Virus record (IMG/VR): IMGVR_UViG_2778261643_000006
DNA from: a virus
Taxonomy: Duplodnaviria > Heunggongvirae > Uroviricota > Caudoviricetes
Reading direction: 5' to 3' (one strand)
DNA: 16,978 nucleotides
Notes under the pieces: generated by a model
What the model was told of the DNA's origin: nothing
Database searches by the model: none
Seen by the model: only the letters and a program-made list of their open reading frames with translations
Position numbers and translations under genes: made by a program
Shown: positions 1,010 to 16,978 of the stretch, piece after piece
How the letters are laid out: the number at the start of each line of letters is the position of its first letter
How positions within the stretch are numbered: the stretch's first letter is position 1

Positions 1010-1310
1010 AACGCACACCTCCGGAAATACCTTCCCCAAGATGCATCAGTTCTTCGTCCGTTCGCTCCGGTATCCCGTTCTCTTCCGGTAAAAGGCTGAA
1101 ATCAGCCACCGCAGCATCACTGCTGCCGGACACCATTCTCACGATCAATGCCTTCAGCGAGGCAAACTGCGCATCCATCCACACATCACTGAAGCTCTGC
1201 ATCCGGAAATAATCACCCCACTCACCAAGCTCAGTGGCCGACATTTCCGACAGCATCCGCCGCCAGTCTGCCCGCCGGAACTCCCGGGCAAGCCGCATGA
1301 CAAACTGCAT
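981..1310 (-). CDS. Tail assembly chaperone, T-frame segment (gpT-like), probably expressed only as a G-T fusion by -1 frameshift
   Basis: 109-aa ORF in the -1 frame relative to the upstream G-like gene, with the T frame open across the last codons of G. This is the conserved G/GT arrangement upstream of tape-measure genes. Confidence 0.7.
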   Translation of the reverse strand: MQFVMRLAREFRRADWRRMLSEMSATELGEWGDYFRMQSFSDVWMDAQFASLKALIVRMVSGSSDAAVADFSLLPEENGIPERTDEELMHLGEGISGGVRYGPDSQPGH

Positions 1311-1318
1311 TTCCCGCG

Positions 1319-1708
1319 TCAGGACTTTTCCGGCGTCAGCACCTCATGCTCCAAATCCCCGGCATTCTCAATGGCTCCCATACCGCTCAGCGACAGAACC
1401 ATCTCTGCCCCCGCACCCAGGGCATCATACGACCATGTTGTAATAACGGATGCGTAAAGCGTCTCAACATCCTGAGACTGTTCCGCATTCCACAGTGAGC
1501 GGGAAACCAGCCAGGCATTGATATCCATCCCCATCCGCAGAAAAGCAATCTGTCGTTCAGCCTCCGGCAGTTCTCCCTCCCCGGCATCAAACTTTGCCGT
1601 TCGCTGCTGAACAAACGTCAGATATTCAATTCTCTGCAGCCCGGACAGCTCACTGAGCACCACGGACTGTTTTTCATAATTAAACGTGTCCTGTTTCAGA
1701 AACATCAT
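1319..1708 (-). CDS. Tail assembly chaperone gpG-like
   Basis: Translation MMFLKQDTFNYEKQSVVLSELSGLQRIEYL... aligns with lambda gpG (MFLKTESFEHNGVTVTLSELSALQRIEHL...). Start re-assigned to ATG at 1706-1708 with GGTGGAG upstream; the ORF-track start at 1747 would overlap a terminator hairpin. Confidence 0.85.
   Translation of the reverse strand: MMFLKQDTFNYEKQSVVLSELSGLQRIEYLTFVQQRTAKFDAGEGELPEAERQIAFLRMGMDINAWLVSRSLWNAEQSQDVETLYASVITTWSYDALGAGAEMVLSLSGMGAIENAGDLEHEVLTPEKS
1325..1331 (-). other. Candidate -1 programmed frameshift site (G GAA AAG) for the G-T fusion
   Basis: The T frame is open for only about 24 nt upstream of the G stop codon (1319-1321). The only A-rich heptamer in that overlap is GGAAAAG, at the same relative position as the lambda GGGAAAG slippery site. 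P-site re-pairing would be imperfect (GAA to GGA). Confidence 0.45.
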
Positions 1709-1721
1709 GTTCTCCACCTGC

Positions 1722-1745
1722 AAAAAAGCCCCGAATAACCGGGGC
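1722..1745 (-). terminator. Rho-independent terminator downstream of the major tail gene
   Basis: On the minus strand: GCCCCG-GTTATT-CGGGGC hairpin followed by TTTTTT, between the V-like stop (1766) and the G-like start (1708). Confidence 0.6.
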
Positions 1746-1765
1746 AAATGATGAGTATCGTCCTG

Positions 1766-2509
1766 TTAACCTGCTGCGCTGACAGTCACCGCAGCCACAG
1801 CCACAAAATTCCCGTCAGCGGTCATGCCCACAATGCTGACACTGCCCTGCTTCACGCCTTTCACCGTGGCTACAAGCCCGTTCAGGGTCACCGTGGCAGT
1901 CTGTGGATCTGACGAATGCACACTGATCGCTTTGTCACTGGCTCCGTCAGGTTTTACTGTAAAGGTCAGCGTGGTGGTTGCTCCCACTTTTACACTGGCA
2001 GACGCCGGTGATACTGTCAGCCCGGTAACGCTCACGGTTTCAGTGCCTTCCTCTGCCAGATACGGACGCCCCACACCGCTGATTTTCACAGTGCGGGTCA
2101 TCACGTCTTTTGAGGCAATGGTTTTACCCAGTGAGCTCAGCCAGCCACGGAAAACATCAACAGTGCCGTTGGGATATTTGATACGAAACGCGCAGACTTC
2201 ACCGGAGTCGAACAACTGAACCAGTTTTTTCTGCCCGCTGTCACCCGGACGCCAGGCCAGCGTCGCCGAAGTATCACCAACGGATTTCTGCCCCTGGGTT
2301 GTCGTTTTCCAGTCTGCATCTTCATCATCGAGATAAGTGTCATCTTCTGCATCAGCGGTCATTTCGCCAGGTTGCAGATCCTTCACCATCGCAAGACGCA
2401 GCCAGTCAGTGTCCGACAAAGGGTTCGCAAACGCATCGCCGTTGCCGGTATACATCCAGAACGTCGTCCCCGCACCTTTCGTCTTTGCCAGTGGATTTGG
2501 TGTGGTCAT
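1766..2509 (-). CDS. Major tail protein (lambda gpV-like) with C-terminal Ig-like domain
   Basis: Translation MTTPNPLAKTKGAGTTFWMYTGNGDAFANPLSDTDW...YLDDEDADW...FRGW aligns closely with lambda gpV. Start re-assigned to ATG at 2507-2509 preceded by TTAAGGAGGT; the track start at 2584 is an N-terminal extension without SD. C-terminal TVSPASASV...TVTVSAAG resembles a Big_2 Ig-like domain. Confidence 0.9.
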   Translation of the reverse strand: MTTPNPLAKTKGAGTTFWMYTGNGDAFANPLSDTDWLRLAMVKDLQPGEMTADAEDDTYLDDEDADWKTTTQGQKSVGDTSATLAWRPGDSGQKKLVQLFDSGEVCAFRIKYPNGTVDVFRGWLSSLGKTIASKDVMTRTVKISGVGRPYLAEEGTETVSVTGLTVSPASASVKVGATTTLTFTVKPDGASDKAISVHSSDPQTATVTLNGLVATVKGVKQGSVSIVGMTADGNFVAVAAVTVSAAG

Positions 2510-2519
2510 TACCACCTCC

Positions 2520-2921
2520 TTAATTCGTGTACGTGATCTGGTACGTGATTTCCGCCATCGCCCAGGTGGCCATCTCATTATCACGTTGATAGTTAAAACC
2601 GAGTGGGATCAGGGTGTCGATGAGTCCGGAAAGTGCCGGTATATCATTCAGGGCAGGGAAAATGGTGCTCTCCATCCACATATCCAGCTCTGAATCCGGT
2701 GCCTGTGCCCGGATGAAGACGGCAATATGCAGAACAGCCTGCCAGTCATCTTCATCCGTCATTTTTCCGGTGTACTGAGCATCACTCAGCCACACCGCCA
2801 CGGCAGGCAGTTCCTGCGCATCAATAAATGCCGGAAGCCCGTCAAAAAACGTGGCGCTGTCTCCACACTGTTCCCGAAGGCGTGCCAGTACGGCCTGGCG
2901 GATTTGTGTATGTCGGTTCAT
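2520..2921 (-). CDS. Minor tail protein U-like (tail terminator)
   Basis: Translation ...HTQIRQAVLARLREQCGDSATFFDGLPAFIDAQELPAVAVWLSDAQYTGKMTDEDDWQAVLHIAVF...PDSELDMWMEST... aligns with lambda gpU. Start placed at ATG 2919-2921, which matches the lambda U N-terminus and overlaps the Z stop as ATGA; the alternative in-frame ATG is at 2933. Confidence 0.88.
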   Translation of the reverse strand: MNRHTQIRQAVLARLREQCGDSATFFDGLPAFIDAQELPAVAVWLSDAQYTGKMTDEDDWQAVLHIAVFIRAQAPDSELDMWMESTIFPALNDIPALSGLIDTLIPLGFNYQRDNEMATWAMAEITYQITYTN

Positions 2922-3496
2922 CGGGTCAGCCATAACCTCAGTTGTTGTTTCAGTGCATACCCCAGCTGTTTCGGCATTTCCGCAGCAATGATGTGGTCGC
3001 GGGCATCTTCAAATGCCTGTGTCAGCGGTCCGGACAGCGGGATTTTCACCACATCAATGGGGTAACGATTTTTGCCATCAATACGCCGCATCACATGCCA
3101 GCGACCATTCGCCAGTTGCTGAATAAACGCATCCCGGAAAAGATATTTACCCACCTTCAGCACACTGCCACGGTACTGCAGTTTTCCACCACGCCGGGCC
3201 AGTCTGACCCGGGCGGTCCCCAGCTTAATGGCAGGCAGATTGCCCCGGTTAACGCGGATCCTGGCCGTCATTTTTCCTGACGGACTGGCTTTAAACACCC
3301 GGACACGCTGACGTACCAGTTTCAGGGGTATCCCTTTCACCTGGTTATCTCCCGCAACGGTATTCCCGGCAACCTGCCGGGTGGCAACCGAGACCGCTTT
3401 CTGTGCCACACGGTTTATCGCCCATGCGCTGGCCTGTGGCACCATACGGGTATCAAGGCTGTTCAGATTGCGGATGGCATTCTCAAGCCCCTTCAT
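2918..3496 (-). CDS. Minor tail protein Z-like
   Basis: 192 aa, the same length as lambda gpZ, with strong similarity (ours FIQQLANGRWHVMRRIDGKNRYPIDVVKIP vs lambda FIQQLKNGRWHVMQRVAGKNRYPIDVVKIP). AGAGGTG precedes the ATG at 3494-3496. Confidence 0.9.
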   Translation of the reverse strand: MKGLENAIRNLNSLDTRMVPQASAWAINRVAQKAVSVATRQVAGNTVAGDNQVKGIPLKLVRQRVRVFKASPSGKMTARIRVNRGNLPAIKLGTARVRLARRGGKLQYRGSVLKVGKYLFRDAFIQQLANGRWHVMRRIDGKNRYPIDVVKIPLSGPLTQAFEDARDHIIAAEMPKQLGYALKQQLRLWLTR

Positions 3497-3507
3497 CCCA
3501 CACCTCT

Positions 3508-3783
3508 TTACTCAATAAAGATCATTGGCTTACCGTTAAAGCGTTCATGCCGTGTGACCGTCCAATGTTGTCCGTCATAAACAACGCGATCCCCGCGCCG
3601 TGGGCGGTATCCCGAAGAAAACACCACCAGAGAGACCGCAGGTCCGGACAGAGCATTCAGCTCTGCCAGTGTTTCTCCCGGGATCACAGTCATATCGACA
3701 TCATTAATCGAGGCTGTCTTTCCCATCTTTCTGACCGTGATCGCATCCATACGCGCTGCCAGCCGGGAAAAGGGATCAGACAT
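3508..3783 (-). CDS. Head-tail attachment protein (lambda gpFII-like)
   Basis: 91 aa; MSDPFSRLAARMDAITVRKMGKTASI...PRRGDRVVYDGQHWTVTRH parallels lambda FII (MADFDNLFDAAIARADETIRGYMGTSATI...LRRGDTLTIGEENFWVDRV). Position between head and tail genes. Confidence 0.7.
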   Translation of the reverse strand: MSDPFSRLAARMDAITVRKMGKTASINDVDMTVIPGETLAELNALSGPAVSLVVFSSGYRPRRGDRVVYDGQHWTVTRHERFNGKPMIFIE

Positions 3784-4099
3784 TGAGTTTTACCGGCACT
3801 TCTTCTGCACTGGTTCCGGCATCTGCCCAGACAACCCCGACCAGCGGATCAGAGCCGCTGTTAGTCAGCTGAACTTTTCCGGACTTCAGATAAACCTTCT
3901 TACCCGTTTTCATGTCATCCGTTTTCAGCTTAGGCAGCATAAACACACCTTCGGTCAGGACGTCGCCTGTTTCACCCTGTGGAATATCGGTCAGCGCCAC
4001 CGCAAAAACATCACCCACCTGCACCAGGTCTCCGCTGCTGATGGCTGCACTGGCAACAATCGCCACCGTTTTTCCTTCTTCTACAAAATTCTTTGCCAT
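3776..4099 (-). CDS. Small head-associated protein, DUF2190-like (putative decoration or capsid accessory protein)
   Basis: Translation from MAKNFVEEGKTVAIVASAAISSGDLVQVGDVFAVALTDIPQGETGDVLTEGVFMLPK... has the Gly/Val-rich pattern of DUF2190 proteins found next to major capsid genes. Start re-assigned to ATG 4097-4099 with GGAG upstream; the track start at 4144 lies inside the capsid terminator. Confidence 0.55.
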   Translation of the reverse strand: MAKNFVEEGKTVAIVASAAISSGDLVQVGDVFAVALTDIPQGETGDVLTEGVFMLPKLKTDDMKTGKKVYLKSGKVQLTNSGSDPLVGVVWADAGTSAEEVPVKLNV

Positions 4100-4140
4100 A
4101 ACTGTCTCCGCACAGCCCCGTTCAGGGGCTGATTTCAGGT

Positions 4141-4161
4141 ACAAAAAAAGCCCTTACGGGC
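4141..4161 (-). terminator. Rho-independent terminator downstream of the major capsid ORF
   Basis: On the minus strand: GCCC-GTAA-GGGC hairpin followed by TTTTTTTGT, between the capsid stop (4186) and the next start (4099). Confidence 0.65.
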
Positions 4162-4185
4162 CATCAGAATTGTTGTCTGCGACGT

Positions 4186-6213
4186 TTACGCCGTACATTT
4201 CACCAGACCGCGGTGATCAACTGGCGCGACACCGGCGTCAATACGCACTTTCGTTGTCACGCCATCCACACTGAAGCCCTCCATCTGATCAATATATGGC
4301 GTATCCACACCGTTGAGATAAGCCACTTCAATCGTATCGGAGCCTTTTGACGCAGCCAGGTAGAAGGTGGTCTGGCTGTTATCATCAAGACGAGGCTCTG
4401 CAATAACGGTCGCAAAATCTTTCACCGGGTTAATAATACCGGCGTTAATGTCAGCCCCCTTGACACTTGAGGAGCGAATGACCTGGTTAGCAACAGACTC
4501 CATCGCCGTCGGTACCAGTACGAACGCAGGACGAATATTCAGATGACGCTCCCCCTCTTTCTGAACGCGCATCAACTGGCGGGCTTTATCCAGCGATGCC
4601 ACGTCCATTGCAGCGCTCTCCAGTACGTTTGCATGTTTCGCTTTATCGAACAGACTTACATTATCTGTGGAGATTTTCGGGTTAGACGTCAGAATGGCAT
4701 AAACCAGATCGGCAATGGTGGATTTCGCCGCACGGCCCAGTTTCATCGGGACATCGGTCAGCATATTCAGATCATCATTGATAATGGCCTGACGGGTGAT
4801 ACTGAACAGCTCGCCATAGGTCGCCAGTGCAATAGTGGCCTGTTTATCTCCGGTGGTGACGTATTTATATTCCGCCCCTTCACGCACCTGACGCAGAGCA
4901 CTGAAGCCACCCATACCCACACGATGGGCAATTTTAAAATCAGACAACTGACCTTTCCGCGTCCACTGTTCATAGGTTTCAGGGGCATCTTCCCAGCCCT
5001 GCAGAATGGCTTTGTTCGCAACATCCAGCAGAATATTACCGAAGTCAGACGTACTGTGTGTGAACGCCGCACCGACCATCTGCATCGGGTTATAACCGGA
5101 AACCCCAATACCCCGTTCAGTTAGTGACATACGGGCATATTCACGCAGGGTCATCCCGTTGTAGACATTATCACGTTCGGTTTTTTCAAATCCGGCACGC
5201 GCCATCAGCGCCTGGCGGATCCCGTCCCCCACAAAATTACCGTTACCGGCATAAATATGAGCCGGGGTATTTTTATTGGATGGCGTGGACTCGCGCCCCA
5301 TCTCGTTCAACAGCTTTTCACGGGCCTGCTCCAGCGAACATTCAGGATCGGCAAGACACTGGGCCTGCAGCATCTGATAACGCCCGCCAAACATGGCAAA
5401 CAGATCATTAATACCGTTTACACGCGCTTTTTGCTCTGCCAGTACCTGCGCACGGATACTGTTTTCATCCACCACGGGTGCTGCTGCCTGCACTGGCGTC
5501 CGGGAGGCTGCAGGTTCATCATCCTGTACGCGTGGAGCACTGTTGCGTGGCGGAGTAATCATGTTTCGAATGGATTCCGGCATCTTTTTAAATTCCTCTG
5601 TACGTTTTGACTGAATACATGCCATTGCCTTAACGGCTGGTGTCACCTGATCAGCAAATCCCTGTGCCAGACATTCGGCACCGGACATCCAGGTCTCATC
5701 CGCCAGCATGGCAGCAATTTCATCGGTGGTTTTCCCGGTTTTCTGTGCATAAGCGGGTAACAGAACCGCCTCAACTTTATCGAGCAGGTCGGCATAGGTG
5801 CGCATGTCCTCCGCATCACCGCCCGTAAAGCCAAATGGTTTATGAATCATCATGAAGGAGTTTTCCGGCATAATGACCGGGTTTCCCACCATCGCAATGA
5901 CCGACGCCATTGACGCCGCCACACCGTCGACATAAACGGTAATGGACGCACCATGTGTTTTCAGTGCATTAAAAATGGCGATGCCTTCAAAGACATCGCC
6001 ACCCGGTGAATTGATATGGAGATTAATGTGGGTGATATCGCCCAGTGCATTCAGATCACTGATAAACTGCTTCGCTGTAACACCCCAGAAACCAATCTCG
6101 TCATAAATATAAATATCCGCGTCACTCTGGTGACCAGCCTGCATCCTGAACCAGGAATTATTCTTCGGACTGGTCGTCGGTGTGCTGCGGCTACTGTCGT
6201 TTCGTTGCGGCAC
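4186..6213 (-). CDS. Prohead protease (ClpP/S49-like) - scaffold-like linker - major capsid protein fusion
   Basis: One uninterrupted ORF. N-terminal part (DIYIYDEIGFWG...INSPGGDVFEGIAIFNAL...ASMASVIAMVG...MIHKP) looks like a ClpP-like phage prohead protease. A charged, Ala/Gln-rich middle segment is scaffold-like. The C-terminal roughly 330 aa looks like a major capsid protein, of a family not recalled with certainty. Start proposed at GTG 6211-6213 (AAGGAGG 5 nt upstream), overlapping the portal 3' end as lambda C overlaps B; alternative ATG at 6144. Confidence 0.75.
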   Translation of the reverse strand: MPQRNDSSRSTPTTSPKNNSWFRMQAGHQSDADIYIYDEIGFWGVTAKQFISDLNALGDITHINLHINSPGGDVFEGIAIFNALKTHGASITVYVDGVAASMASVIAMVGNPVIMPENSFMMIHKPFGFTGGDAEDMRTYADLLDKVEAVLLPAYAQKTGKTTDEIAAMLADETWMSGAECLAQGFADQVTPAVKAMACIQSKRTEEFKKMPESIRNMITPPRNSAPRVQDDEPAASRTPVQAAAPVVDENSIRAQVLAEQKARVNGINDLFAMFGGRYQMLQAQCLADPECSLEQAREKLLNEMGRESTPSNKNTPAHIYAGNGNFVGDGIRQALMARAGFEKTERDNVYNGMTLREYARMSLTERGIGVSGYNPMQMVGAAFTHSTSDFGNILLDVANKAILQGWEDAPETYEQWTRKGQLSDFKIAHRVGMGGFSALRQVREGAEYKYVTTGDKQATIALATYGELFSITRQAIINDDLNMLTDVPMKLGRAAKSTIADLVYAILTSNPKISTDNVSLFDKAKHANVLESAAMDVASLDKARQLMRVQKEGERHLNIRPAFVLVPTAMESVANQVIRSSSVKGADINAGIINPVKDFATVIAEPRLDDNSQTTFYLAASKGSDTIEVAYLNGVDTPYIDQMEGFSVDGVTTKVRIDAGVAPVDHRGLVKCTA

Positions 6214-7666
6214 TGCTGCCTCCTTTATCACTGGCCGGATCGGTATCAAATACCAGATCCAGCTTGCGGTTTTCATCAATTTCGGCCTTGCGCCGACGTT
6301 TGACATCATCCGGATTACGACCACCTGCACGTACCCAGTCTGATTCTGTCGCCGCTCCACCACGAATCTGAATTTTCCAGGCCTCAGCCTCCTTAACAGG
6401 GTCAATCCACGGCATCACCGGTCCGGAATACACCGCGGTATACAGTGAAGAACGGTCAAGATCGCGGGGTAGCCTGATAACACCGGATGCCACAGCCTGT
6501 TTCAGCCAGGCACGATACATCGGGCGGGTGACGGCACCAATAAACCAGTCCTGCAGGATCAGGTAGCCATCAGTGGATTCAACCAGCTCCTGACGCTGGG
6601 CGCTGTAAGTGCCGTTATAGTTGCGTGCCGTACTGGAAAAACTCAGACGACTGCCCGCCGCCACGGCACGCAACTGACCATTACGAAAAGTTTCAAGGTT
6701 AGGATTGGGACGATCCGACTTCACCATTCCGATTTCTTCGCCGGGTTTCAGATCGTCGTAAATAATGCCTGGCTGAATGGTAAGCTCGCGTTCCTTATCC
6801 TTGCTGCCATTACCATCCGGTTCATAGCTCTGCCCGTCGCCTTTCCGGATGTACATCCCCAGAGCAGCGGCGATCCTTGCTGCAGTCAGCTCAGAATCTT
6901 CATACTCTTTCAGGGCACTGAGGCGGATCAGCACACCGGACAACAAAGACGTCCCGCGCATCTGGTGCAGACGGCGAACAAATTTAAGATGCAGCATTCG
7001 CTCTGCATCCACTTCTTTGGTTTCCATCTGCCGTCCGGATACGGGACGACTTTTATACACCAGATATTTTTCGGGACGCCCCCAGTCATCAACAAACACG
7101 CCCTGATTCAGCCTGTTGCTCTCATCACTGGTCATGGGAATAAAGTCCGGCTCGAGTGCCTCCAGCCAGAAATGAACACCGGCAGAAGGCGTCAGGCTGT
7201 TTATGCGCCCGGAAACCATCTGGGCAAACACCTCACCATCGCGCAGCCAGGTACGCAGCATCAGACGTTCCAGCATCGGACGGGTAAACTGCCCGGTGAC
7301 TTCCGGGCTGACAGACCATTCACTCCATCGGATGCGAATCTCCGCAGCCAGGTCACGGGCAATGGCCCCATTGCGTAATACCGGATGTGGCTCGACAATA
7401 ATCCCGTTTTTCCCCACCACCCGTTCTTCCAGCTTGTCAAATACACCAATGACCAGATCGTGGTTGTTATCAAGGTAACGGGCCTGCTCACGTAACGACA
7501 CGGCCCCGTACTGGCTTAACTGGTCGGCAGTTCGGTTTTCCCGCCGGGCTTTGTGTGTCCGCGTCGTTTTTACGGCCTCATAAGCCTGGATCACCGCACG
7601 GGAACGCAGCCTTGCCGCTTTCCATCCTGGTGAAAAAACGCCAATCACATCATCAAGAATTGCCAT
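6191..7666 (-). CDS. Portal protein (lambda gpB family)
   Basis: About 490 aa ORF between terminase and capsid genes, with portal-like composition and position. Start re-assigned to ATG 7664-7666 (MAILDDVIGVFSPGWKAARL...), which overlaps the W-like stop as TGATG. Confidence 0.88.
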   Translation of the reverse strand: MAILDDVIGVFSPGWKAARLRSRAVIQAYEAVKTTRTHKARRENRTADQLSQYGAVSLREQARYLDNNHDLVIGVFDKLEERVVGKNGIIVEPHPVLRNGAIARDLAAEIRIRWSEWSVSPEVTGQFTRPMLERLMLRTWLRDGEVFAQMVSGRINSLTPSAGVHFWLEALEPDFIPMTSDESNRLNQGVFVDDWGRPEKYLVYKSRPVSGRQMETKEVDAERMLHLKFVRRLHQMRGTSLLSGVLIRLSALKEYEDSELTAARIAAALGMYIRKGDGQSYEPDGNGSKDKERELTIQPGIIYDDLKPGEEIGMVKSDRPNPNLETFRNGQLRAVAAGSRLSFSSTARNYNGTYSAQRQELVESTDGYLILQDWFIGAVTRPMYRAWLKQAVASGVIRLPRDLDRSSLYTAVYSGPVMPWIDPVKEAEAWKIQIRGGAATESDWVRAGGRNPDDVKRRRKAEIDENRKLDLVFDTDPASDKGGSSAATKRQ

Positions 7667-7878
7667 CAGAACCTCGCCAGCCGGTACCCGGGATGCCCCC
7701 GTCGTCGTGTAATCAGAGCCGCAAGGCGGCGCTCCCACTCCTGCCGCCCCTGCCGGATCTCAGATAAGTTTTCCATGGTCATCTGCTGACCATTAAAGGT
7801 GACGGATTTTCCGTCCAGCACCGCCATTTCAGCTTCCGTATAACGCTGAATCATGGCTTCGATATCATTCTGGTTCAT
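7666..7878 (-). CDS. Head-tail joining protein (lambda gpW-like)
   Basis: About 70 aa with C-terminal ...ITRRRGHPGYRLARF, resembling the lambda gpW C-terminus (...TQRRRGPAGFYV). Start at ATG 7876-7878 with GGAGG 6 nt upstream, overlapping the terminase stop as ATGA. Confidence 0.75.
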   Translation of the reverse strand: MNQNDIEAMIQRYTEAEMAVLDGKSVTFNGQQMTMENLSEIRQGRQEWERRLAALITRRRGHPGYRLARF

Positions 7879-9974
7879 AACCATCCTCCGGAAGTCAGCC
7901 AGGGGTTAACATCGTCAGTTACTGTTTTCTTCCGTTTTTGTTTTTTAACAGGCGTGGATACCGGTTCCGGTGTGGGTGACGGTTCGGTACTGTCCGGGAC
8001 ACACTCCAGCCAGGTTTCCCGGCTCGCCCACTCCGGTGCATCCGGCCAGCGGATCTTTTCGTATCCATGCAGAATGACCAGAGCCTCGGCATACACCATC
8101 AGGTCAAAAGCTTCGTTGGCACCGCGACCTGGCTTACTCCATTTCCCGTCACTGCTCCGCTCTTCATACGTCAGTTCGTCGTAAAACCAACTCCCCAGCC
8201 AGTCAGGGAAATGCACATAGCCGGGACCTGGCGAGTCACGCCATAACGCGTTATTCACCCGGTCTTTCAGTGCATCCGTCTGAAGAAGCCAGAGCGGCAC
8301 ATCACCTGCGGCCTGCGCCCGTCGGCCCGTTCGTCCGGTGTTATCAGGGAATGTACGGGTGATCAGTTTTGCGCGCCGGATGCTGTCGCCCTTAAACAGG
8401 TAAATACGTTTACCAAGGCCATCACGACGGCAACGACGCCAGAATTTATAGGCATTATCAGTGACCCCGTCTTCACCGCCGGAGTCCACCGCCATTGCCA
8501 TCAGTCGCATTTGTTGAGAAGGATCGGAGGCCAGCGGCCAGCTTTTATGAAAAACATCCGTCAGCAGGACATCCCAGTCTTCCGGATAGCTGGCCGGATC
8601 AATTCGCTGGCTCTCCCCGTCGCTGTCACCGCGCAATGACTGCGTGATGTTGTAACGATCAATAATCCAGCGTTCGCCACGGCTGCCATAGCCCGTTACC
8701 TGAACCACAAAACGGCGATGACGTCCCGCCTGCACATCCACTGTCGCCACAAGGAAATTAATGCCATCCGGCACACTGCGGGAAGGAACTGGCTCTGCCC
8801 GCTGCTCAAGCAGTTCACTTTTTCGTTGCTCCATGCTGGCACGAGGAAGATAAGGCAATCCCCAGTCGGTGTTGATAACCGCCCTGAGTGTTTCTTCGCT
8901 TCCTGTCGCTTCATACTCCTGTTCTGCAGTCAGTAATTTGTAAACCAGTTGCGCCCAGGTCTGATACGCAGCAGCTGGCCCTTCCATCCAGAAACTGGCG
9001 ATACGGGAGCGGCGCGGTTCACCGGAAACGTTGCCGTTACGATCAATGACCTGACCTTCACGCAACCAGACTCCTGCACTATTGAGCTCACGCTTTTTCT
9101 CCGCAGTGATAATGCCGCTGCAGTGCGGGCAAAGTAGATACGCCGCCTCACTGGCTTTAAAGGGATCCGGTTCATTACGGTAGCCGGTCATGGCATCCAT
9201 GGCTGGCTGAAAATATTCACCGCAGTGCGGACATGACCAGTACCAGCGGCGGCGGTCACCACGATTGTAAAGGGAAAGAATACCAGTCGTCGGTGGCGCT
9301 TCATGAGGCGACTTACGTCGCCATTTGCTGTCGCAGATGTCACGTCCCGGCGAGCTCTCCACCAGAGTCATCCCGGCGGACATAAATGTGGTGGTACGTT
9401 TTGAGGCCAGGGAGAAACCATCACCCTCGCTGTCGATATTCTCCGGAAAACGGTCGTAATCGGTTAAGGCGACAAACCGGTAATCCGACGACGACATAAT
9501 GTTGACCGAGGGCCAACCAATTTTAAGGAACGAGCCATCCCTGAACGTCTTATCATGGACATTATTGTCGTTACGACGTGGACTCATTCTTTTCTTTACC
9601 GCCGCACTGCTTCTGAACGTTCTGTCGAGGCGCTTTTTAGAATGCTCGCGGGCCTTATCTTCGGTCATCTGCACAACGAGCATGTCCGAAGGATCGCAAA
9701 CGATGGTATAGACAATCCATCCATCGATCAGACCAATGGTCTTCCCTGTTCGCGCAGGACCAACAAAAATCACCGCATCGTATTCACGCGATGCCAGGCA
9801 GTTCATGGGCTCAATGATGTAGGGTGTCAGTTCAGGATCCCATGGCACCGAGTTACCAGCCCCCTTGGGAACACGCATGAATTTTTTAACAGCCTCCGAA
9901 ATCGGCATGCGACGTGGTGGGGAAAATCCTGCCGATATGTCCCTTCCCAAATTTCGGGCTGATGAAAAACCCAT
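7875..9974 (-). CDS. Terminase large subunit (lambda gpA-like)
   Basis: 699 aa. N-terminal ATPase region with Walker A-like VGPARTGKT, paired Cys motifs (CPHCGEYF...CPHCSG) and a C-terminal nuclease region, in the arrangement of lambda gpA. ATG 9972-9974 is preceded by GGAGG directly after the Nu1-like stop. Confidence 0.92.
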   Translation of the reverse strand: MGFSSARNLGRDISAGFSPPRRMPISEAVKKFMRVPKGAGNSVPWDPELTPYIIEPMNCLASREYDAVIFVGPARTGKTIGLIDGWIVYTIVCDPSDMLVVQMTEDKAREHSKKRLDRTFRSSAAVKKRMSPRRNDNNVHDKTFRDGSFLKIGWPSVNIMSSSDYRFVALTDYDRFPENIDSEGDGFSLASKRTTTFMSAGMTLVESSPGRDICDSKWRRKSPHEAPPTTGILSLYNRGDRRRWYWSCPHCGEYFQPAMDAMTGYRNEPDPFKASEAAYLLCPHCSGIITAEKKRELNSAGVWLREGQVIDRNGNVSGEPRRSRIASFWMEGPAAAYQTWAQLVYKLLTAEQEYEATGSEETLRAVINTDWGLPYLPRASMEQRKSELLEQRAEPVPSRSVPDGINFLVATVDVQAGRHRRFVVQVTGYGSRGERWIIDRYNITQSLRGDSDGESQRIDPASYPEDWDVLLTDVFHKSWPLASDPSQQMRLMAMAVDSGGEDGVTDNAYKFWRRCRRDGLGKRIYLFKGDSIRRAKLITRTFPDNTGRTGRRAQAAGDVPLWLLQTDALKDRVNNALWRDSPGPGYVHFPDWLGSWFYDELTYEERSSDGKWSKPGRGANEAFDLMVYAEALVILHGYEKIRWPDAPEWASRETWLECVPDSTEPSPTPEPVSTPVKKQKRKKTVTDDVNPWLTSGGWL

Positions 9975-9982
9975 TATTCCTC

Positions 9983-10510
9983 CTAGAGACTCTCTCCTTC
10001 CTCATCAGGAATTAATTCAGCAGCACAAGCCTCGTAGGATTTTTCCTGAAGAGTGTATCGCAGGTCATCAATTGCCTGCTGTACAACGCCGACGGCCTGA
10101 GGAGTCAGGGCGCAATCGCGTTCAAGAACATCCGGAATTGTCTCCAGAACCTGGACGACAGCCTTTCTCATGGACGAATAGACGATGACTACTTCATCAA
10201 CGGGGATGAGTTTTCGCTGCTCCTTTTCCAGCTTGATCCTTTCATTTTCAGACTGGTACCAGTCCTTTCTCTCTTTCGGCTCCATACGGGATGGATCATG
10301 AACAGAGTCTGCTGCCTCATGCTTCACACTAAACAGGGCTGGCCCGACATGCTGCAGGGCGTAAACGGGGTTCCCCCTGACAGTCGCAGCCACAGGAGTG
10401 TTGGCCGCGAGACGCCGTTTTTTTACTGTGTCCCGGTGAAGCCCAAAGGCCTCAGCGATTTTAAAAACACTCCAGTAATAAGCATCACCGATCCCGCTCA
10501 CATTTGACAT
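9983..10510 (-). CDS. Terminase small subunit (lambda Nu1-like)
   Basis: N-terminal helix-turn-helix-like region (YYWSVFKIAEAFGLHRDTVKKR) and ERKDWYQSENERIKLEKEQRKL parallel lambda Nu1 (KWYAERDAEIENEKLRREVEEL). Sits directly upstream of the large subunit. Start re-assigned to ATG 10508-10510 (GGAG upstream). Confidence 0.75.
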   Translation of the reverse strand: MSNVSGIGDAYYWSVFKIAEAFGLHRDTVKKRRLAANTPVAATVRGNPVYALQHVGPALFSVKHEAADSVHDPSRMEPKERKDWYQSENERIKLEKEQRKLIPVDEVVIVYSSMRKAVVQVLETIPDVLERDCALTPQAVGVVQQAIDDLRYTLQEKSYEACAAELIPDEEGESL

Positions 10511-10539
10511 AAGCAACTCCATCTGGCAGGTGAAAATCA

Positions 10540-10734
10540 TGTTTATTTATATATTTCAATTAATTGTAAACTGATCTAATGACAGGGAGAAAAAAATATT
10601 GTACAGGTAAAAAGAGAAATAACTTTTAATTATCAATAAATTACCAAACATGCTGCCGCCGCCATGGAAATGCAAAAACTAGCCTTTTTCCGCGACGCTC
10701 CCGCCCCGTGGCAGGGGCCCCCACCGGGAGGACC
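10540..10734 (-). other. Putative cos region (cosN-like core near 10690-10710, cosB-like AT-rich segment toward Nu1)
   Basis: Minus strand reads CACGGGGCGGGAGCGTCGCGGAAAAAGG, closely parallel to lambda cosN and flanks (TTACGGGGCGGCGACCTCGCGGGTTTTCGC), followed by an AT-rich segment before the Nu1-like start, as in lambda. Confidence 0.45.
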
Positions 10735-10783
10735 CGACAGCCTGACAGCCTGACAGCCTGACAGCCTGACAGCCGTGACGAGC
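10735..10783. repeat. Direct tandem repeat of the octamer CTGACAGC (4 perfect copies with degenerate flanking copies)
   Basis: Read directly: cgacagc ctgacagc ctgacagc ctgacagc ctgacagc cgtgacgagc. Units are head-to-tail with no spacers. Located on the upstream (cosQ) side of the cosN-like core. Confidence 0.9.
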
Positions 10784-10910
10784 ATCTGATACAGCGCTTT
10801 ACATAATGGCATAGGAATAATTCAGAAGGACATCACAGCATGCCCACACAAATTAGTGTGAGTGTCCTGTTTCTTCCTACGCACAGGACTGACGAGCATG
10901 AGGGGAAAAT

Positions 10911-11078
10911 ATGCGAACCATAAATGCCTCATCTTCAGCAATGCAGCCGGCATCCGAACAGGACGATATTGTAAATTCACCTAATTACGAGGACATTGCA
11001 GTAGTTGAATTGCAGCTCTGTATTAGCCTGACAGTGACAGAATGCGATATTGACTCTGTCACAGGTGAAATAGTTTGA
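10911..11078 (+). CDS. Hypothetical small acidic protein (55 aa)
   Basis: ATG at 10911 preceded by GAGGGGAAAAT; translation MRTINASSSAMQPASEQDDIVNSPNYEDIAVVELQLCISLTVTECDIDSVTGEIV. Below the ORF-track size cutoff. Convergent with the 68-aa ORF. Confidence 0.35.
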   Translation: MRTINASSSAMQPASEQDDIVNSPNYEDIAVVELQLCISLTVTECDIDSVTGEIV

Positions 11079-11098
11079 ATGATTAGCAGTTATGGTGC

Positions 11099-11305
11099 TC
11101 AGTCAACCACCAGGGAATAATCCTTCGAATTCTTATCGTGCTTCACCAACGCTGCCTCAATTGCCCTGAATGCTTCCAGAGACACCTGATGTTCTATACA
11201 TGCAATTACAACATCCGGGTAACTCATAGAAATGGTGCTATTAAGCATATTTTTTACACGAATCAGATCCAACGAGAGTTCATCAGCAGATTGTTCTTTA
11301 TTCAT
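11099..11305 (-). CDS. Hypothetical small protein (68 aa)
   Basis: ATG 11303-11305 with GGAG upstream; protein-like composition ([68 protein letters not shown]). The antisense track ORF 11138-11344 is Cys/His/Arg/Phe-rich and looks spurious. Confidence 0.5.
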
Positions 11306-11605
11306 TTTGTCGCTCCATGCGTTTGCTCGTCATCTAGCGGTTAAAATATTACTTCAAATCTTACTGCATAAAAGAGGAAAAGTATGAAAGTTTGAGTACA
11401 TCGACCTTACATACATCTGTCGGTTGCATATCCCTCCTGGATGCCAGCAAGGCTCAATTTTGTTACGCAATCAACACTATTCATTAAAAACAGGCTTAAT
11501 ATTTGACATAAATCATCAACAAAACACAAAGAGGTCAGACCAGATTGAAACAATAAACACGATAATGCAAACTACGCGCCATCGTATCACATGGAAGGTT
11601 TACCA

Positions 11606-12016
11606 ATGGCTCAGGCTGCCATTTTTAAAGAAATATTCGATCAAGTGCGTAAAGATTTAAACTGTGAATTATTTTATTCTGAGCTAAAACGTCACAATAT
11701 CTCACTTTATATTTACTATTTAGCCACAGATAATATTCACATTGTGTTAGAAAACGACAACATAGTGTTAGTAAAAGGACTCAAAAAGGTTGTAAATGTT
11801 AAATTCTCCAGAAACAAACATCTTATAGAGACCTCCTATAATAAGTTGAAATCAAAAGAAATCACATTTCAACAATACAGGGAAAATCTTGCTAAAGCAG
11901 GAGTTTTCCGATGGGTTACAAATATCCAGGAACACCAAAGATATTACTATGCCTTTGATAACTCATTACTATTTACTGAAAGCATCCAGAAAACTACACA
12001 GATCTTACCACGCTAA
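11606..12016 (+). CDS. DUF1398-family protein (YdfO/YbcV-like), 136 aa
   Basis: ATG 11606 preceded by GGAAGG; translation [51 protein letters not shown].... Length and position (between cos/terminase and gnsB) match K-12 Qin ydfO as recalled; the family assignment is from memory. Confidence 0.65.
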
Positions 12017-12024
12017 ACCATAAC

Positions 12025-12053
12025 GTCCGGCTTCTCTCACTCCTGAGCCGGAC
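12025..12053 (+). terminator. Hairpin downstream of the YdfO-like gene (possible weak terminator)
   Basis: GTCCGGCT - 13-nt loop - AGCCGGAC, followed by TGCATTGGTTT; the U-tract is weak. Confidence 0.3.
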
Positions 12054-12104
12054 TGCATTGGTTTAATAAAAACCATCAACAATTGTGATTTAGATATTCG
12101 GAAC

Positions 12105-12140
12105 CATTCAAATATAACAAAACCCCGTAAAAACGAGGTT
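12105..12140 (-). terminator. Putative Rho-independent terminator downstream of the gnsB-like gene
   Basis: On the minus strand: AACCTCG-TTTTTA-CGGGGTT imperfect hairpin followed by TTGTTATATTTG. Confidence 0.4.
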
Positions 12141-12167
12141 TATGGATAAATTTTATTATTGAATACA

Positions 12168-12344
12168 TCAGATTAAATTAATCTTGACATCATAGCTTTC
12201 AAGACCCGTCATTTTTTCCCGTGCGGTAAACTGAATACTGGTAACTTCTTTCCCGGTCTTTTTCTTAAGTTCAATAATTTTTTTTGTTATATATTCAGAA
12301 ATATCTGCTTCTGCTTTTGTTTTTAAGTTTTCAATATTCATCAT
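12168..12344 (-). CDS. gnsB: GnsA/GnsB-family small protein (58 aa)
   Basis: Not in the ORF track (under 60 aa). Translation MMNIENLKTKAEADISEYITKKIIELKKKTGKEVTSIQFTAREKMTGLESYDVKINLI matches the GnsA/GnsB family. AAGAGGAA precedes ATG 12342-12344. Confidence 0.8.
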   Translation of the reverse strand: MMNIENLKTKAEADISEYITKKIIELKKKTGKEVTSIQFTAREKMTGLESYDVKINLI

Positions 12345-12389
12345 TTCCTCTTTTAGTCTGTTATGACTTTCCAGTTACACAGTAAGTCG

Positions 12390-12420
12390 ATTATATGGTG
12401 CAAACGTGTAAAAGATAAGA
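12390..12420 (-). promoter_or_regulatory. Candidate sigma70 promoter for the gnsB-like gene (perfect -10 TATAAT, weak -35)
   Basis: Minus strand TATAAT at 12395-12390, about 45 nt upstream of the gnsB-like ATG; best -35 at 17-nt spacing is TTATCT. Confidence 0.3.
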
Positions 12421-12512
12421 TGAAACATCGCAATAATCAACATACGATAGTCTAAATTTTACACAAACAGACAAAGAGAATTTTCCTGAATTATCAATAC
12501 AATAGCATCAAA

Positions 12513-12743
12513 TCAACTCAAGAGCCTTATTGCTGCTTCCAGAATTTCTTCTGAAGTAACATGTCGATCCGCGGCTACATAAATGACTTTATGATCTCCG
12601 GTCAGAGATGGAAACCCTGCGGCCATTACAGTAAGGTGTGTTTTTTCGCCATTTGGATATTCACGCATGATGGTGTTAACTCCAGTCATCGCTGGCACTA
12701 CCACTGCTGGTTCAGAGTTAAAAAAAACTATGATTTTTTTCAT
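12513..12743 (-). CDS. Small protein, YnfN-like by position (76 aa from ATG)
   Basis: Translation MKKIIVFFNSEPAVVVPAMTGVNTIMREYPNGEKTHLTVMAAGFPSLTGDHKVIYVAADRHVTSEEILEAAIRLLS. The track ORF begins at an upstream TTG; ATG at 12741-12743 chosen, with weak SD. The gene between gnsB and cspI in K-12 Qin is ynfN; the sequence itself was not recognised. Confidence 0.6.
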   Translation of the reverse strand: MKKIIVFFNSEPAVVVPAMTGVNTIMREYPNGEKTHLTVMAAGFPSLTGDHKVIYVAADRHVTSEEILEAAIRLLS

Positions 12744-12785
12744 GATGTTACCGTAGTATGTGAGTATCCATCGAATAGATACCAA

Positions 12786-12807
12786 GCAAAAAAGCTCCCG
12801 AAGGAGC
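12786..12807 (-). terminator. Rho-independent terminator downstream of cspI
   Basis: On the minus strand: GCTCC-TTCG-GGAGC hairpin followed by TTTTTTG, about 200 nt downstream of the cspI stop. Confidence 0.6.
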
Positions 12808-13014
12808 CTTCATTTTCACTTTTTTAAATCCAACGACAGACGGCTGGCATTTAAGTATTGTGAAATATTATCAAATGTAATCATCATTGATTTACAAAAG
12901 ATACATTTTGCCCCGAAAGGATTCATGTCAGAAACATCAAAAGATGATGTTCTATACTGGGAACCATGACAACACGGGCATCTAAAGTGAATATGGTTTG
13001 TAATATTGTCTACC

Positions 13015-13227
13015 TCAAAGCGCCACTACATGAACAGCGGCAGGACCTTTAGGTCCGTTCTCAATACCAAATTCAACTTCCTGATTCTCAGTTAATGTTT
13101 TGAAATCGTTGCTCTGAATTGCTGAGAAATGGACAAACACATCTTTGCTGCCATCTTTCGGCGTGATGAAACCAAAACCTTTTTCAGGGTTAAACCATTT
13201 CACTAAACCAGTCATTTTGTTAGACAT
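13015..13227 (-). CDS. cspI: Cold-shock protein CspI (CspA family)
   Basis: 70 aa, [70 protein letters not shown], with canonical cold-shock RNP motifs (KGFGFI, VFVHF). Matches K-12 Qin CspI as recalled. Confidence 0.9.
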
Positions 13228-13323
13228 AATTATTACCTTTTGAAGAAATTAGCCCTTGGGCAGAATGGTCCGAAAAAAAATATCAGAGAGAAAAACCAAC
13301 AAGGAAATCTCAAGAGGTACAAA

Positions 13324-13345
13324 TAATAAAATTATAACAATGACT
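13324..13345 (-). promoter_or_regulatory. Candidate extended -10 promoter (TGtTATAAT) for cspI
   Basis: Minus strand TG-T-TATAAT at 13339-13331, about 100 nt upstream of the cspI ATG within an AT-rich leader region. No convincing -35. Confidence 0.3.
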
Positions 13346-13590
13346 GCTTCAGATAAATTTGTAACAAACCAGAACACCATTAACGCATGATTAACCACCC
13401 ATAGCAAGGATTACTTTTGTAAAGAAAAACACAGCAATGAAAGAATAGCTTTATTTATTAATAATAACGTGTCATTCTGATTAAGACCTTTTATCTTACC
13501 CTTAAGATTTCAGGAATTTTGGCTCATGGAAGAGTCCTTTTTATTTAAATTTTACATTCCGCGATGTAAATGTTCCGATTTAATATTACC

Positions 13591-14614
<1,024 letters not shown>

Positions 14615-14618
<4 letters not shown>

Positions 14619-14926
14619 ATATATTTATGATGAGGACGCTCGTGCTTATTGGCAGGATTTTCAATCTTAAAGGAGTACTGATGCTGCAGATAAGACTCAA
14701 CTTTTTCTGACAATTTTTCTGCTACTTCCAGGAAGACTTGCCGGACGCTCCTTCTGGCTGCTGCCTCATAAAACTCCAGCGCAGCTCCTTCAACACGGTC
14801 CATGGCGACATCCAGGTCAAAAATTTCACCGTCAAAGCGTTCTTTGTCCTGTAAGGCTACAGTTACCGTAACTTTATTCTCAAAATTACGGACTCCTTTC
14901 ACAACCAGTTCATAGTCTTGAGTCAT
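14615..14926 (-). CDS. YdfR-like protein of unknown function (103 aa), inside the lysis cassette
   Basis: ATG 14924-14926 is 5 nt after the holin stop, with AGGAG inside the holin 3' end; its stop overlaps the endolysin ATG as ATGA. Length and position match K-12 Qin ydfR as recalled. No recognisable catalytic motif or hydrophobic segment. Confidence 0.7.
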
Positions 14927-14930
14927 TGGA

Positions 14931-15146
14931 TTACTCTCCTCTCGCAGCCTTACGCCTGTCTTCTTTAATCTTGAAATAAAGATTTGTCAGATACGTCAGC
15001 AGGCCAAAAACCAGGCTACCCAGCACACCGATTGCAGCCCACTGTGACGGAGTTACTTTATCGAGTAACTGCAATGCCCAGAAACCAGCATTACCCGCCG
15101 ATGTGCCATAGGCAACACCTGTTGTTAACTTATCCATTGATTTCAT
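14931..15146 (-). CDS. Class II holin / pinholin (phage 21 S21-like) with dual-start motif
   Basis: From [71 protein letters not shown] (71 aa), near-identical in pattern to P21 S21 with its Met-Lys-Ser-Met dual start. The track ORF has a 25-aa N-terminal extension, rejected. Coordinates are from ORF-track arithmetic; my base counting near 15060 was off by one. Confidence 0.85.
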
Positions 15147-15365
15147 ATCCTCACCCCGATGTACACGGATGGTGCAATATGTTTGAAAAGATCGGAGTCT
15201 ACGGGGTAGTTTTGACAGCACACGCTGTTCTCAACGGCGCTAAAGAAACATACACATTAAAAATGTGAGTAATTATTTTGAAAGAAAGTCATATATAAAA
15301 TAATAATACGAGAAATGTTTTCATATTTAGTGTACTGTATACGGCCATTTATACAGGAAAAGCCT

Positions 15366-15536
15366 ATGTCAGAACGTAAAGACTCAAAATCACGCCGTAA
15401 TTATCTCGTTAAATGTTCCTGCCCAAACTGCACCCAAGAGTCAGAACACAGTTTTTCAAGAGTACAAAAAGGTGCCCTTTTGATCTGCCCTCATTGCAAC
15501 AAAGTATTCCAGACAAATCTTAAAGCTGTAGCCTGA
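15366..15536 (+). CDS. Small zinc-ribbon protein (56 aa; two CxxC pairs)
   Basis: ATG 15366 preceded by AGGAAA; translation MSERKDSKSRRNYLVKCSCPNCTQESEHSFSRVQKGALLICPHCNKVFQTNLKAVA with CPNC...CPHC. Possibly corresponds to a small Qin zinc-binding protein, but not recognised with certainty. Confidence 0.55.
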   Translation: MSERKDSKSRRNYLVKCSCPNCTQESEHSFSRVQKGALLICPHCNKVFQTNLKAVA

Positions 15537-15594
15537 TTGATTTTATTAGTAACAAGTATTTTTTATATTTTAATAATATATTTAAAGCAGATAA

Positions 15595-15616
15595 TAAAAA
15601 ACCCGCCTGAGCGGGT
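15595..15616 (-). terminator. Rho-independent terminator (strong on minus strand, possibly bidirectional)
   Basis: Plus strand AAAAAA-ACCCGC-CTGA-GCGGGT-TTGAG. On the minus strand the hairpin is followed by TTTTTTATTAT. Lies about 285 nt downstream of the cspB stop and about 60 nt downstream of the zinc-ribbon ORF. Confidence 0.7.
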
Positions 15617-15899
15617 TTGAGATTGTGGTGCTTTTTGTGGGAGTCATCCACTTACGCACTTTGTTTTGCCATGCCAGCAGTTAGCTTCTGCTGTAAAACT
15701 ATTCATGCAGCAAACCTGCACTTCACCACAATGGTTAGCATACTTTTCCTGATTAAGATTTTGCCAAATATGCTGGCCATTGTTTCATGTATTGGACCTC
15801 CTTAATTTTTATTAAAGAAATCCAATATTCACTACTCTGTCCGTATCTCTACTCAGGCATCAGCCTTCTTCGTTATCGTATACAGACGAGCGATGAATT

Positions 15900-16115
15900 T
15901 TAATCAGTAATGATGACATTTGCTGCTGCAGGACCTTTAGCACCACTCTCTATAGAGAAGGTAACCTTTTGACCTTCAAATAAGGTTCGATAATTATCAT
16001 TCTGAATCGCAGAAAAATGCACAAACACATCTTTACTACCATCAACAGGAGAAATAAAGCCGAAACCTTTATCAGCGTTAAACCATTTTACTAAACCAGT
16101 CATTTTATTTGACAT
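15900..16115 (-). CDS. cspB: Cold-shock protein CspB (CspA family)
   Basis: 71 aa, [71 protein letters not shown]. Divergent from cspF as in K-12 Qin. Confidence 0.9.
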
Positions 16116-16415
16116 TCTACATTCCTTAACTTGAGCCTTTCGGCATAAATGGTTTGCATAACAGAAACGACTTCGTACTTAATTGGAGAGACTCAAAGAA
16201 GGAATAAGTGAATAACACCTGAAATGAGAACTGCTTTAGTAAACTACTTCGTATATCGTCTGTTCTTCAAACCGACGCAATCATTAACGCATAGTTGAAC
16301 ATATGAAGCAATGTTTATTTTAGACATCCAGCCATCTTCAACCCCATCAAAAAACTATAGCTTTCTTCAGGAACGTGTGTATAGTGCGCCAAGTTATCAG
16401 TATTAAGGAATTTTT

Positions 16416-16616
16416 TTGTCCCGTAAAATGACAGGAATTGTCAAAACCTTTGACGGCAAAAGCGGCAAGGGTCTTATCACCCCATCCGATGGTCGTATCG
16501 ATGTCCAGCTTCATGTTTCAGCGCTCAATCTCCGCGATGCAGAAGAAATTACCACCGGATTACGCGTGGAATTTTGCCGGATAAATGGTCTGCGTGGCCC
16601 TTCAGCTGCCAGGTGA
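16416..16616 (+). CDS. cspF: Cold-shock-like protein CspF, 3' end interrupted by IS1 (last codons and stop supplied by the IS1 terminus)
   Basis: TTG start at 16416 with TAAGGAA 5 nt upstream; [27 protein letters not shown]...[16 protein letters not shown]. The ORF stops at TGA 16614-16616, inside the IS1 left end beginning at 16612 (GCC AGG TGA). CspA-family proteins normally extend a few residues past GPxAA. Confidence 0.75.
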
Positions 16617-16666
16617 TGCTGCCAACTTACTGATTTAGTGTATGATGGTGTTTTTGAGGTGCTCCA

Positions 16667-16942
16667 GTGGCTTCTGTTTCTATCAGCTGTCCCTCCTGTT
16701 CAGCTACTGACGGGGTGGTGCGTAACGGCAAAAGCACCGCCGGACATCAGCGCTATCTCTGCTCTCACTGCCGTAAAACATGGCAACTGCAGTTCACTTA
16801 CACCGCTTCTCAACCCGGTACGCACCAGAAAATCATTGATATGGCCATGAATGGCGTTGGATGCCGGGCAACAGCCCGCATTATGGGCGTTGGCCTCAAC
16901 ACGATTTTACGTCACTTAAAAAACTCAGGCCGCAGTCGGTAA
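16667..16942 (+). CDS. insA: IS1 InsA (transposition regulator; upstream frame of the InsAB' transposase)
   Basis: 91 aa, [91 protein letters not shown], matching IS1 InsA. Confidence 0.95.
16918..16924 (+). other. IS1 A6C programmed -1 frameshift motif (InsA to InsAB')
   Basis: AAAAAAC within TTAAAAAACTC near the 3' end of insA, at the position of the known IS1 frameshift site. Confidence 0.8.
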
Positions 16943-16978
16943 CCTCGCGCATACAGCCGGGCAGTGACGTCATCGTCT

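Follow-up and report, generated by a model that had tools for sequence, protein, structure and literature searches.

The interrupted locus and its prophage

The window analysed here, a stretch of 16,978 bp, is the whole of draft contig NLWS01000024.1 from E. coli assembly GCA_002513315.1, and the same contig is recorded for three samples. It carries the late genes of a Qin-like lambdoid prophage and ends, on the right, inside an IS1 element joined to the 3' end of cspF. In the proposed arrangement, cspF would be a cold-shock-domain accessory ('moron') gene placed between the Q antiterminator and the lysis genes. The features needed below are, by window position:

13591–15146, minus strand: lysis cassette, lying beyond the insertion in the direction of late transcription; the cassette and each of its genes are identical to those of strain CV839-06
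13591–14088, minus strand: rzpQ
14085–14618, minus strand: lysozyme gene rrrQ
14615–14926, minus strand: ydfR
14931–15146, minus strand: holin gene essD
15599–15618, minus strand: hairpin and T-run downstream of cspB, a strong native terminator, antisense to the region after ynfU (terminator scan)
15884–16276, minus strand: intact cspB mRNA, comprising the 5' UTR thermoregulator and the cspB coding sequence at 15900–16115 (Rfam RF01766, 158.8 bits)
16416–16616, plus strand: truncated cspF, from TTG at 16416 to the TGA ending at 16616, 66 codons and a stop (open reading frame translation)
16603–16611, no strand: predicted 9-bp target CAGCTGCCA, based on three other IS1 copies of the region that are flanked by 9-bp duplications
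16612–16634, plus strand: IS1 left terminal inverted repeat (IRL), 23 bp, GGTGATGCTGCCAACTTACTGAT
16612–16978, plus strand: left part of IS1A, 367 bp, up to the contig end (identity to the IS1A of strain CEA106S)
16619–16646, plus strand: inward-facing promoter-like site CTGCCA-16-TATGAT in the IRL, upstream of insA (promoter scan), which we take from established IS1 knowledge to be the insA promoter
16667–16942, plus strand: insA, intact, 91 aa (Pfam Zn_ribbon_InsA and HTH_Tnp_IS1)
16752–16738, late strand: weak hairpin and T-run inside IS1 (terminator scan)
16918–16924, plus strand: A6C motif AAAAAAC for -1 frameshifting; insB' lies almost wholly past the contig end

The prophage has a close uninterrupted relative in the Qin-like prophage of the porcine strain CV839-06, to which window positions 1–16611 are 99.9% identical over 16.6 kb. 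The two differ by three SNPs (one synonymous in the terminase gene, one R43L substitution in a DUF1441 protein and one in the tape-measure gene) and by one 8-bp repeat unit, a distance small enough to suggest that the insertion is young. The repeat unit belongs to a non-coding tandem array of the octamer GACAGCCT (5.4 copies, 10736–10779) upstream of the DUF1441 and terminase genes; the array holds one unit more than in CV839-06 and is the sole indel between the two prophages.

The late genes annotated in CV839-06 are intact in the window, namely the tail genes, a ClpP-protease/capsid fusion, the portal, the large terminase and essD-ydfR-rrrQ-rzpQ. The exception is the tape-measure gene, which the contig's left end truncates (window 1–1009; positions 9944–13009 of the CV839-06 locus, L006). 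This left end is probably another assembly break, at sequence common to other lambdoid prophages. Compared with the cryptic prophage Qin of E. coli K-12 (essQ-cspB-cspF-ynfS-ydfT), gene order and orientation are the same at 98.2% identity over 5.1 kb, and a TTG start is annotated for cspF in both. K-12 Qin lacks terminase, portal, capsid and tail genes, whereas the window retains them, and its cspF is intact where that of the window is not.

The IS1–cspF junction

Native cspF sequence ends at 16611 and the IS1 left inverted repeat begins exactly at 16612. The first-pass annotation had placed the IS1 left end there, within the last codons of cspF and followed by Arg-stop, and this proved right to the base. 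In the window the junction reads ...ggcccttcagctgcca joined directly to GGTGATGCTGCCAACTTACTGAT..., or over a wider span ...aatggtctgcgtggcccttcagctgcca joined to GGTGATGCTGCCAACTTACTGATTTAGTG..., with GCTGCCAGGTGATGC as the junction-spanning string. The element is attached to cspF through its left repeat, and insA lies on the same strand as cspF.

The element itself is readily recognized. Positions 16612–16978 match the complete IS1A copy of strain CEA106S with 0 mismatches in 367 bp, and the 23-bp IRL also bounds complete IS1 copies in five complete genomes (L001, L002, L010, L012 and L013). Both Pfam matches in InsA are full length (PF03811, E = 1.3e-21; PF12759, E = 4.7e-31). Against the IS1A of E. 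coli K-12 (768 bp), the IRL, the insA promoter region, insA and the A6C motif are all identical, in a comparison that covers the left 48% of the element, with the right repeat, insB' and the target duplication lying past the contig end. Short-read assembly failed at the repeat, so that the contig breaks off inside IS1, with the IS1 right end and the target duplication of this strain out of view. The junction reflects a genuine IS1A transposition into cspF codon 66, and a recent one; element, gene and prophage type are all known.

A shortened CspF

The interrupted protein was identified as CspF by synteny and by identity at 65 of 65 residues, and NCBI lists it under that name for E. coli. It has 66 aa and ends in ...GLRGPSAAR*, whereas the uninterrupted protein of K-12 MG1655, CEA106S and CV839-06 has 70 aa and ends in ...GPSAANVYLS*, translated from ...gctgccaATGTTTACCTTTCATGA; across the insertion site, intact cspF reads ...GCTGCCAATGTTTACC.... 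The intact alleles thus show that IS1 has exchanged the last five residues, NVYLS, for a single Arg. The Arg codon AGG (16611–16613) is composed of native A16611 and the first GG of IS1, and the stop codon TGA (16614–16616) is formed by IS1 nucleotides 3–5. Comparison with uninterrupted alleles, which the first-pass annotation had proposed, therefore gives a native C-terminus four residues longer than the one here, not one of the same length.

The loss falls within the fold. The cold-shock domain (CSD) Pfam match covers profile positions 1–61 of 66 in the truncated protein, compared with 1–65 in the intact one; a complete five-stranded CSD barrel takes about 66 profile positions, and the domain of truncated CspF falls short of this. 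CspF residues 1–67 align one to one with CspA 1–67, and the residues lost are 66–70 (CspA 66–70). The last strand of the CspA fold spans approximately residues 63–70. On this position-for-position alignment, the missing residues amount to most (over half) of the last beta-strand of the barrel. As judged from the sequence, the barrel of truncated CspF probably cannot close, and cspF has probably been inactivated by IS1. A further 66-aa member of the same protein cluster (P0014), on a 4.7-Mb contig, was considered as another truncated allele and rejected, being an alternative start call of an intact cspF.

Distribution of the junction

The exact junction in this orientation occurs in 0 of 5,426 complete E. 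coli genomes, and so does a junction at the same site in the opposite orientation (0 of 5,426). Apparent full-length junction matches in complete genomes were rejected, as the IS1 copies concerned lie 172 bp or approximately 354 bp further right. The left junction was also absent from the genome_contigs scan. For a simple insertion, the right junction is predicted to read ...GTTGGAGTCATTACC followed by CAGCTGCCAATGTTTACCTTTCATGA, and the IS1 right end to be followed by CAGCTGCCAATGTTTACC; this predicted junction was absent from the genome_contigs and metagenome_contigs scans. Literature searches yielded nothing usable on IS1 within cspF, on hot spots for IS1 insertion or on IS1 polarity under antitermination. 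The earlier description of the insertion as strain-specific is borne out by these counts together with K-12, where the MG1655 allele of cspF is intact at 70 aa, as the first-pass annotation had it.

Recurrent insertion at one nucleotide

Two other draft contigs, JUCS01000004.1 and JBJQKB010000088.1, encode an identical 66-aa CspF, and in both IS1 abuts the same cspF nucleotide as in the window. Both differ from the window in the orientation of the element, which is opposite, so that the right repeat lies next to cspF: the junctions read gctgcca followed by GGTAATGACTCC in JUCS01000004.1 and gctgcca followed by GGTAGTGACTCC in JBJQKB010000088.1. These opposite-orientation copies (L004, 10197–10545; L005, 5591–5699) sit in K-12-like Qin backgrounds, their flanks being 99.8% and 99.96% identical to MG1655 and diverging from the window by 1.8%. 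The two contigs also differ from each other, at 12 of 5,590 flank sites and 6 of 109 IS1 sites, and they carry different IS1 isoforms, the copy in JUCS01000004.1 being IS1A-like and that in JBJQKB010000088.1 a divergent isoform. Since homologous recombination between IS copies cannot swap the IS end that meets a flank, the insertions must have arisen independently at least twice and, on the simplest reading, three times. No other mapped IS1 site in the interval recurs. Both contigs were found through an identical-protein match, an ascertainment that prevents a proper estimate of the significance of the recurrence.

That one nucleotide should be hit repeatedly is more in keeping with target preference than with selection against cspF or against late transcription. 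Homology to the ends of the element is part of the general background on IS1 hot spots. Here the target GCTGCCA with the next native base A (GCTGCCAA) equals positions 7–14 of the IS1 IRL. However, 36 8-mers in 18 kb of the uninterrupted relative are shared with the IS1 repeats, among them an 11-mer not known as a target, so the GCTGCCAA match is weak evidence, to be expected at about 3% for a random site. We therefore put forward only tentatively, as something possible rather than probable, that the bond after GCTGCCA, at codon 65/66 of cspF, is a true and orientation-independent IS1 hot spot that has been struck at least three separate times, and that GCTGCCAA may attract the transposase or InsA.

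The cspH paralog of strain 19SZHZ869Rt was considered as a fourth strike at a homologous site and rejected, its junction lying 11 nt upstream and being linked to a deletion. In that strain (L014, 2570–3345) the IS1 right repeat is joined inside the 3' end of cspH, with gfcB' on the other side. IS1 stands beside cspH in many genomes; in K-12 (L015, 1779–2546) an IS1D copy lies 417 bp beyond it.

Simple insertion or deletion junction

A single visible IS1 end may belong either to a simple insertion or to a rearrangement. In a simple insertion, CAGCTGCCA would be duplicated, and IS1 would be followed by the remainder of cspF and then by ynfS, the terminator, the late promoter and Q. Alternatively, the junction could be the edge of an IS1-mediated adjacent deletion or rearrangement, by which the lysis and morphogenesis genes would have been cut from the late promoter and Q, leaving the prophage late-gene dead; the position of the IS1 right end, past the end of the contig, leaves room for this.

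IS1 copies in the same region of other genomes offer a guide. In six complete genomes (EC06, Z1323CEC0012, CEA106S, F3_13_1_3, PI24 and CUPS03) the 1.3-kb ynfU-cspB-cspF-ynfS interval contains an IS1 oriented as in the window. All of these copies differ from that of the window in lying at other nucleotides, and none of the six truncates the CspF C-terminus. In EC06, Z1323CEC0012 and CEA106S both ends were mapped, and each copy is a simple insertion flanked by a 9-bp duplication. In F3_13_1_3 the IS1 splits ynfU; it was mapped at the right junction only and is counted among the insertions, which thus make up 4 of the 6. The remaining two are IS1-linked deletions, with the IS1 left ends in or next to cspF and with ydfT (Q) and the relBE/hokD region lost. 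In PI24 (L012, 3650–4417) the element is joined at the equivalent of window position 16448, its other end lying approximately 10 kb away in the early region, and in CUPS03 (L013, 3498–4265) it is joined at the equivalent of 16296, its other end lying just upstream of flxA.

That two of six comparable copies are deletion junctions which removed Q keeps a deletion alive as an alternative for the window, and that four are insertions favours a simple insertion, roughly two to one. The recurrence described above points the same way: deletion end-points should scatter, whereas a nucleotide struck in two other lineages is better explained by primary insertion at a preferred target. We accordingly regard a deletion as a live but doubtful reading. 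A genuine and recent simple insertion of IS1A, with cspF probably inactivated, late transcription largely reading through the element and cspB unaffected, is the best explanation as a whole, with a probability of about 0.65.

Late control to the right of cspF in relatives

The control elements expected to the right of cspF can be examined in relatives. In CV839-06, in K-12 and in phage PhiR42_1, the order is cspF, ynfS, a hairpin, a promoter-like site and Q. The corresponding positions in the CV839-06 locus (L006) are:

28913–28936: hairpin AAAACCCGCTGATGAGCGGGTTTT (from the sequence)
29011–28982, late strand: promoter-like site TTTGCA-18-TAAAAT (sequence scan)
29042–29794: ydfT, the Q gene (annotation)

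YdfT is a lambda-type Q (E = 4.6e-36 to PDB 7UBM). K-12 Qin, phage PhiR42_1 and phage SfV all conserve the sequence that runs from the stop codon of Q through the hairpin; in SfV the same hairpin is annotated as a rho-independent terminator, and the homology to SfV stops exactly there. The module Q-ynfS-cspF-cspB-holin also occurs in deposited phage genomes, namely those of PhiR42_1 (99.7%), 2H10, Tritos and HannyBb.

Late control in lambdoid and Stx phages follows a scheme of Q, the late promoter pR' and the terminator tR' (PMC7547250). The relatives resemble it in presenting a lambda-type Q, a promoter-like site, a terminator hairpin and then the lysis genes, and differ from it in that approximately 1.9 kb of moron genes (ynfS, cspF, cspB and ynfU) and an extra terminator stand between tR' and the holin gene. 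From the gene order in CV839-06, the probable pR'/tR' pair would precede the IS1 site by approximately 300–400 bp, and cspB and the holin gene would come after it. The first-pass annotation had located IS1 between the lysis genes and the Q/late-promoter region. By synteny with CV839-06 this holds, and the promoter-like site there lies to the right of the IS1 site, not on the lysis side of it; for the strain of the window it is a prediction, Q, pR' and tR' all being outside the window.

Predicted transcription across IS1

Late transcription would enter IS1 from its right end, antisense to insAB. For ordinary transcription, IS1 is strongly polar in both orientations. This classical polarity, the weak terminator-like hairpin on the late strand inside IS1 (16752–16738) and the location of the site, which in relatives has the putative late promoter/terminator on one side and the holin gene on the other, together speak for a simple insertion whose strong polarity on Q-dependent late transcription abolishes lysis or assembly, as had been suggested when the element was first noticed.

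The native path from Q to the holin gene, however, already holds a tR'-like hairpin and the cspB terminator (15618–15599), as it does in the phage records with the module; in a phage type built in this way, late transcription must already read through 15599–15618. [quoted passage not shown] Q-modified, terminator-resistant polymerase would thus be expected to read largely through IS1. Because Q-modified polymerase passes terminators and the native path already contains two, strong polarity of cspF::IS1 on the late genes is judged unlikely, and the suggested lysis or assembly defect is not supported.

The companion suggestion, that an outward promoter of IS1 alters cspF or cspB expression, fares no better and is unlikely in the same measure. 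A promoter scan across the junction found none: on the minus strand the -35-like TTGGCA (16625–16620) is followed after 17 bp by AAGGGC, with no -10 element after the -35 of the IRL. In this the window junction is unlike the IS1 insertion of CEA106S, which does form a hybrid TTGGCA-17-TATTAT. The full-length Rfam cspA-thermoregulator match places the 5' end of the cspB mRNA near 16276, 336 bp from IS1, and an effect of the element on cspB expression appears unlikely from the sequence. A second full-length match to the same Rfam family, corresponding to the cspI mRNA, lies on the minus strand at 12988–13373 in the late region of the prophage.

The weakest alternative, that the junction is an assembly artefact at a chimeric contig end and that the real genome has no IS1 in cspF, is very improbable: although the contig does end in a multicopy repeat, where assemblers err, native sequence gives way to the element at precisely IS1 nucleotide 1, the position that transposition dictates, and the 367 bp that follow are flawless IS1; the contig is on record from three samples, and two independent assemblies place IS1 at the same nucleotide.

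Implications

For annotation, the locus holds two lessons: a truncated and probably dead cspF allele still carries the name CspF in databases, and whether Q and the late promoter remain linked to the lysis and head genes cannot be read from a contig that breaks off within IS1. Should the site prove a true hot spot, it would provide a convenient natural substrate for studies of IS1 target choice.

For the prophage, the case shows IS1 eroding a nearly intact Qin-like element. In CV839-06 the early region is already decayed, with a partial ISEsa1 transposase, truncated ydfB and ydfD, and an IS3 copy (L006, 33997–35067 and 38073–40603), and prophages of this lineage may be non-inducible whatever the fate of cspF. 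The insertion of IS1 into cspF is most plausibly a further stage in the decay of the prophage region by IS elements, not a regulatory device.
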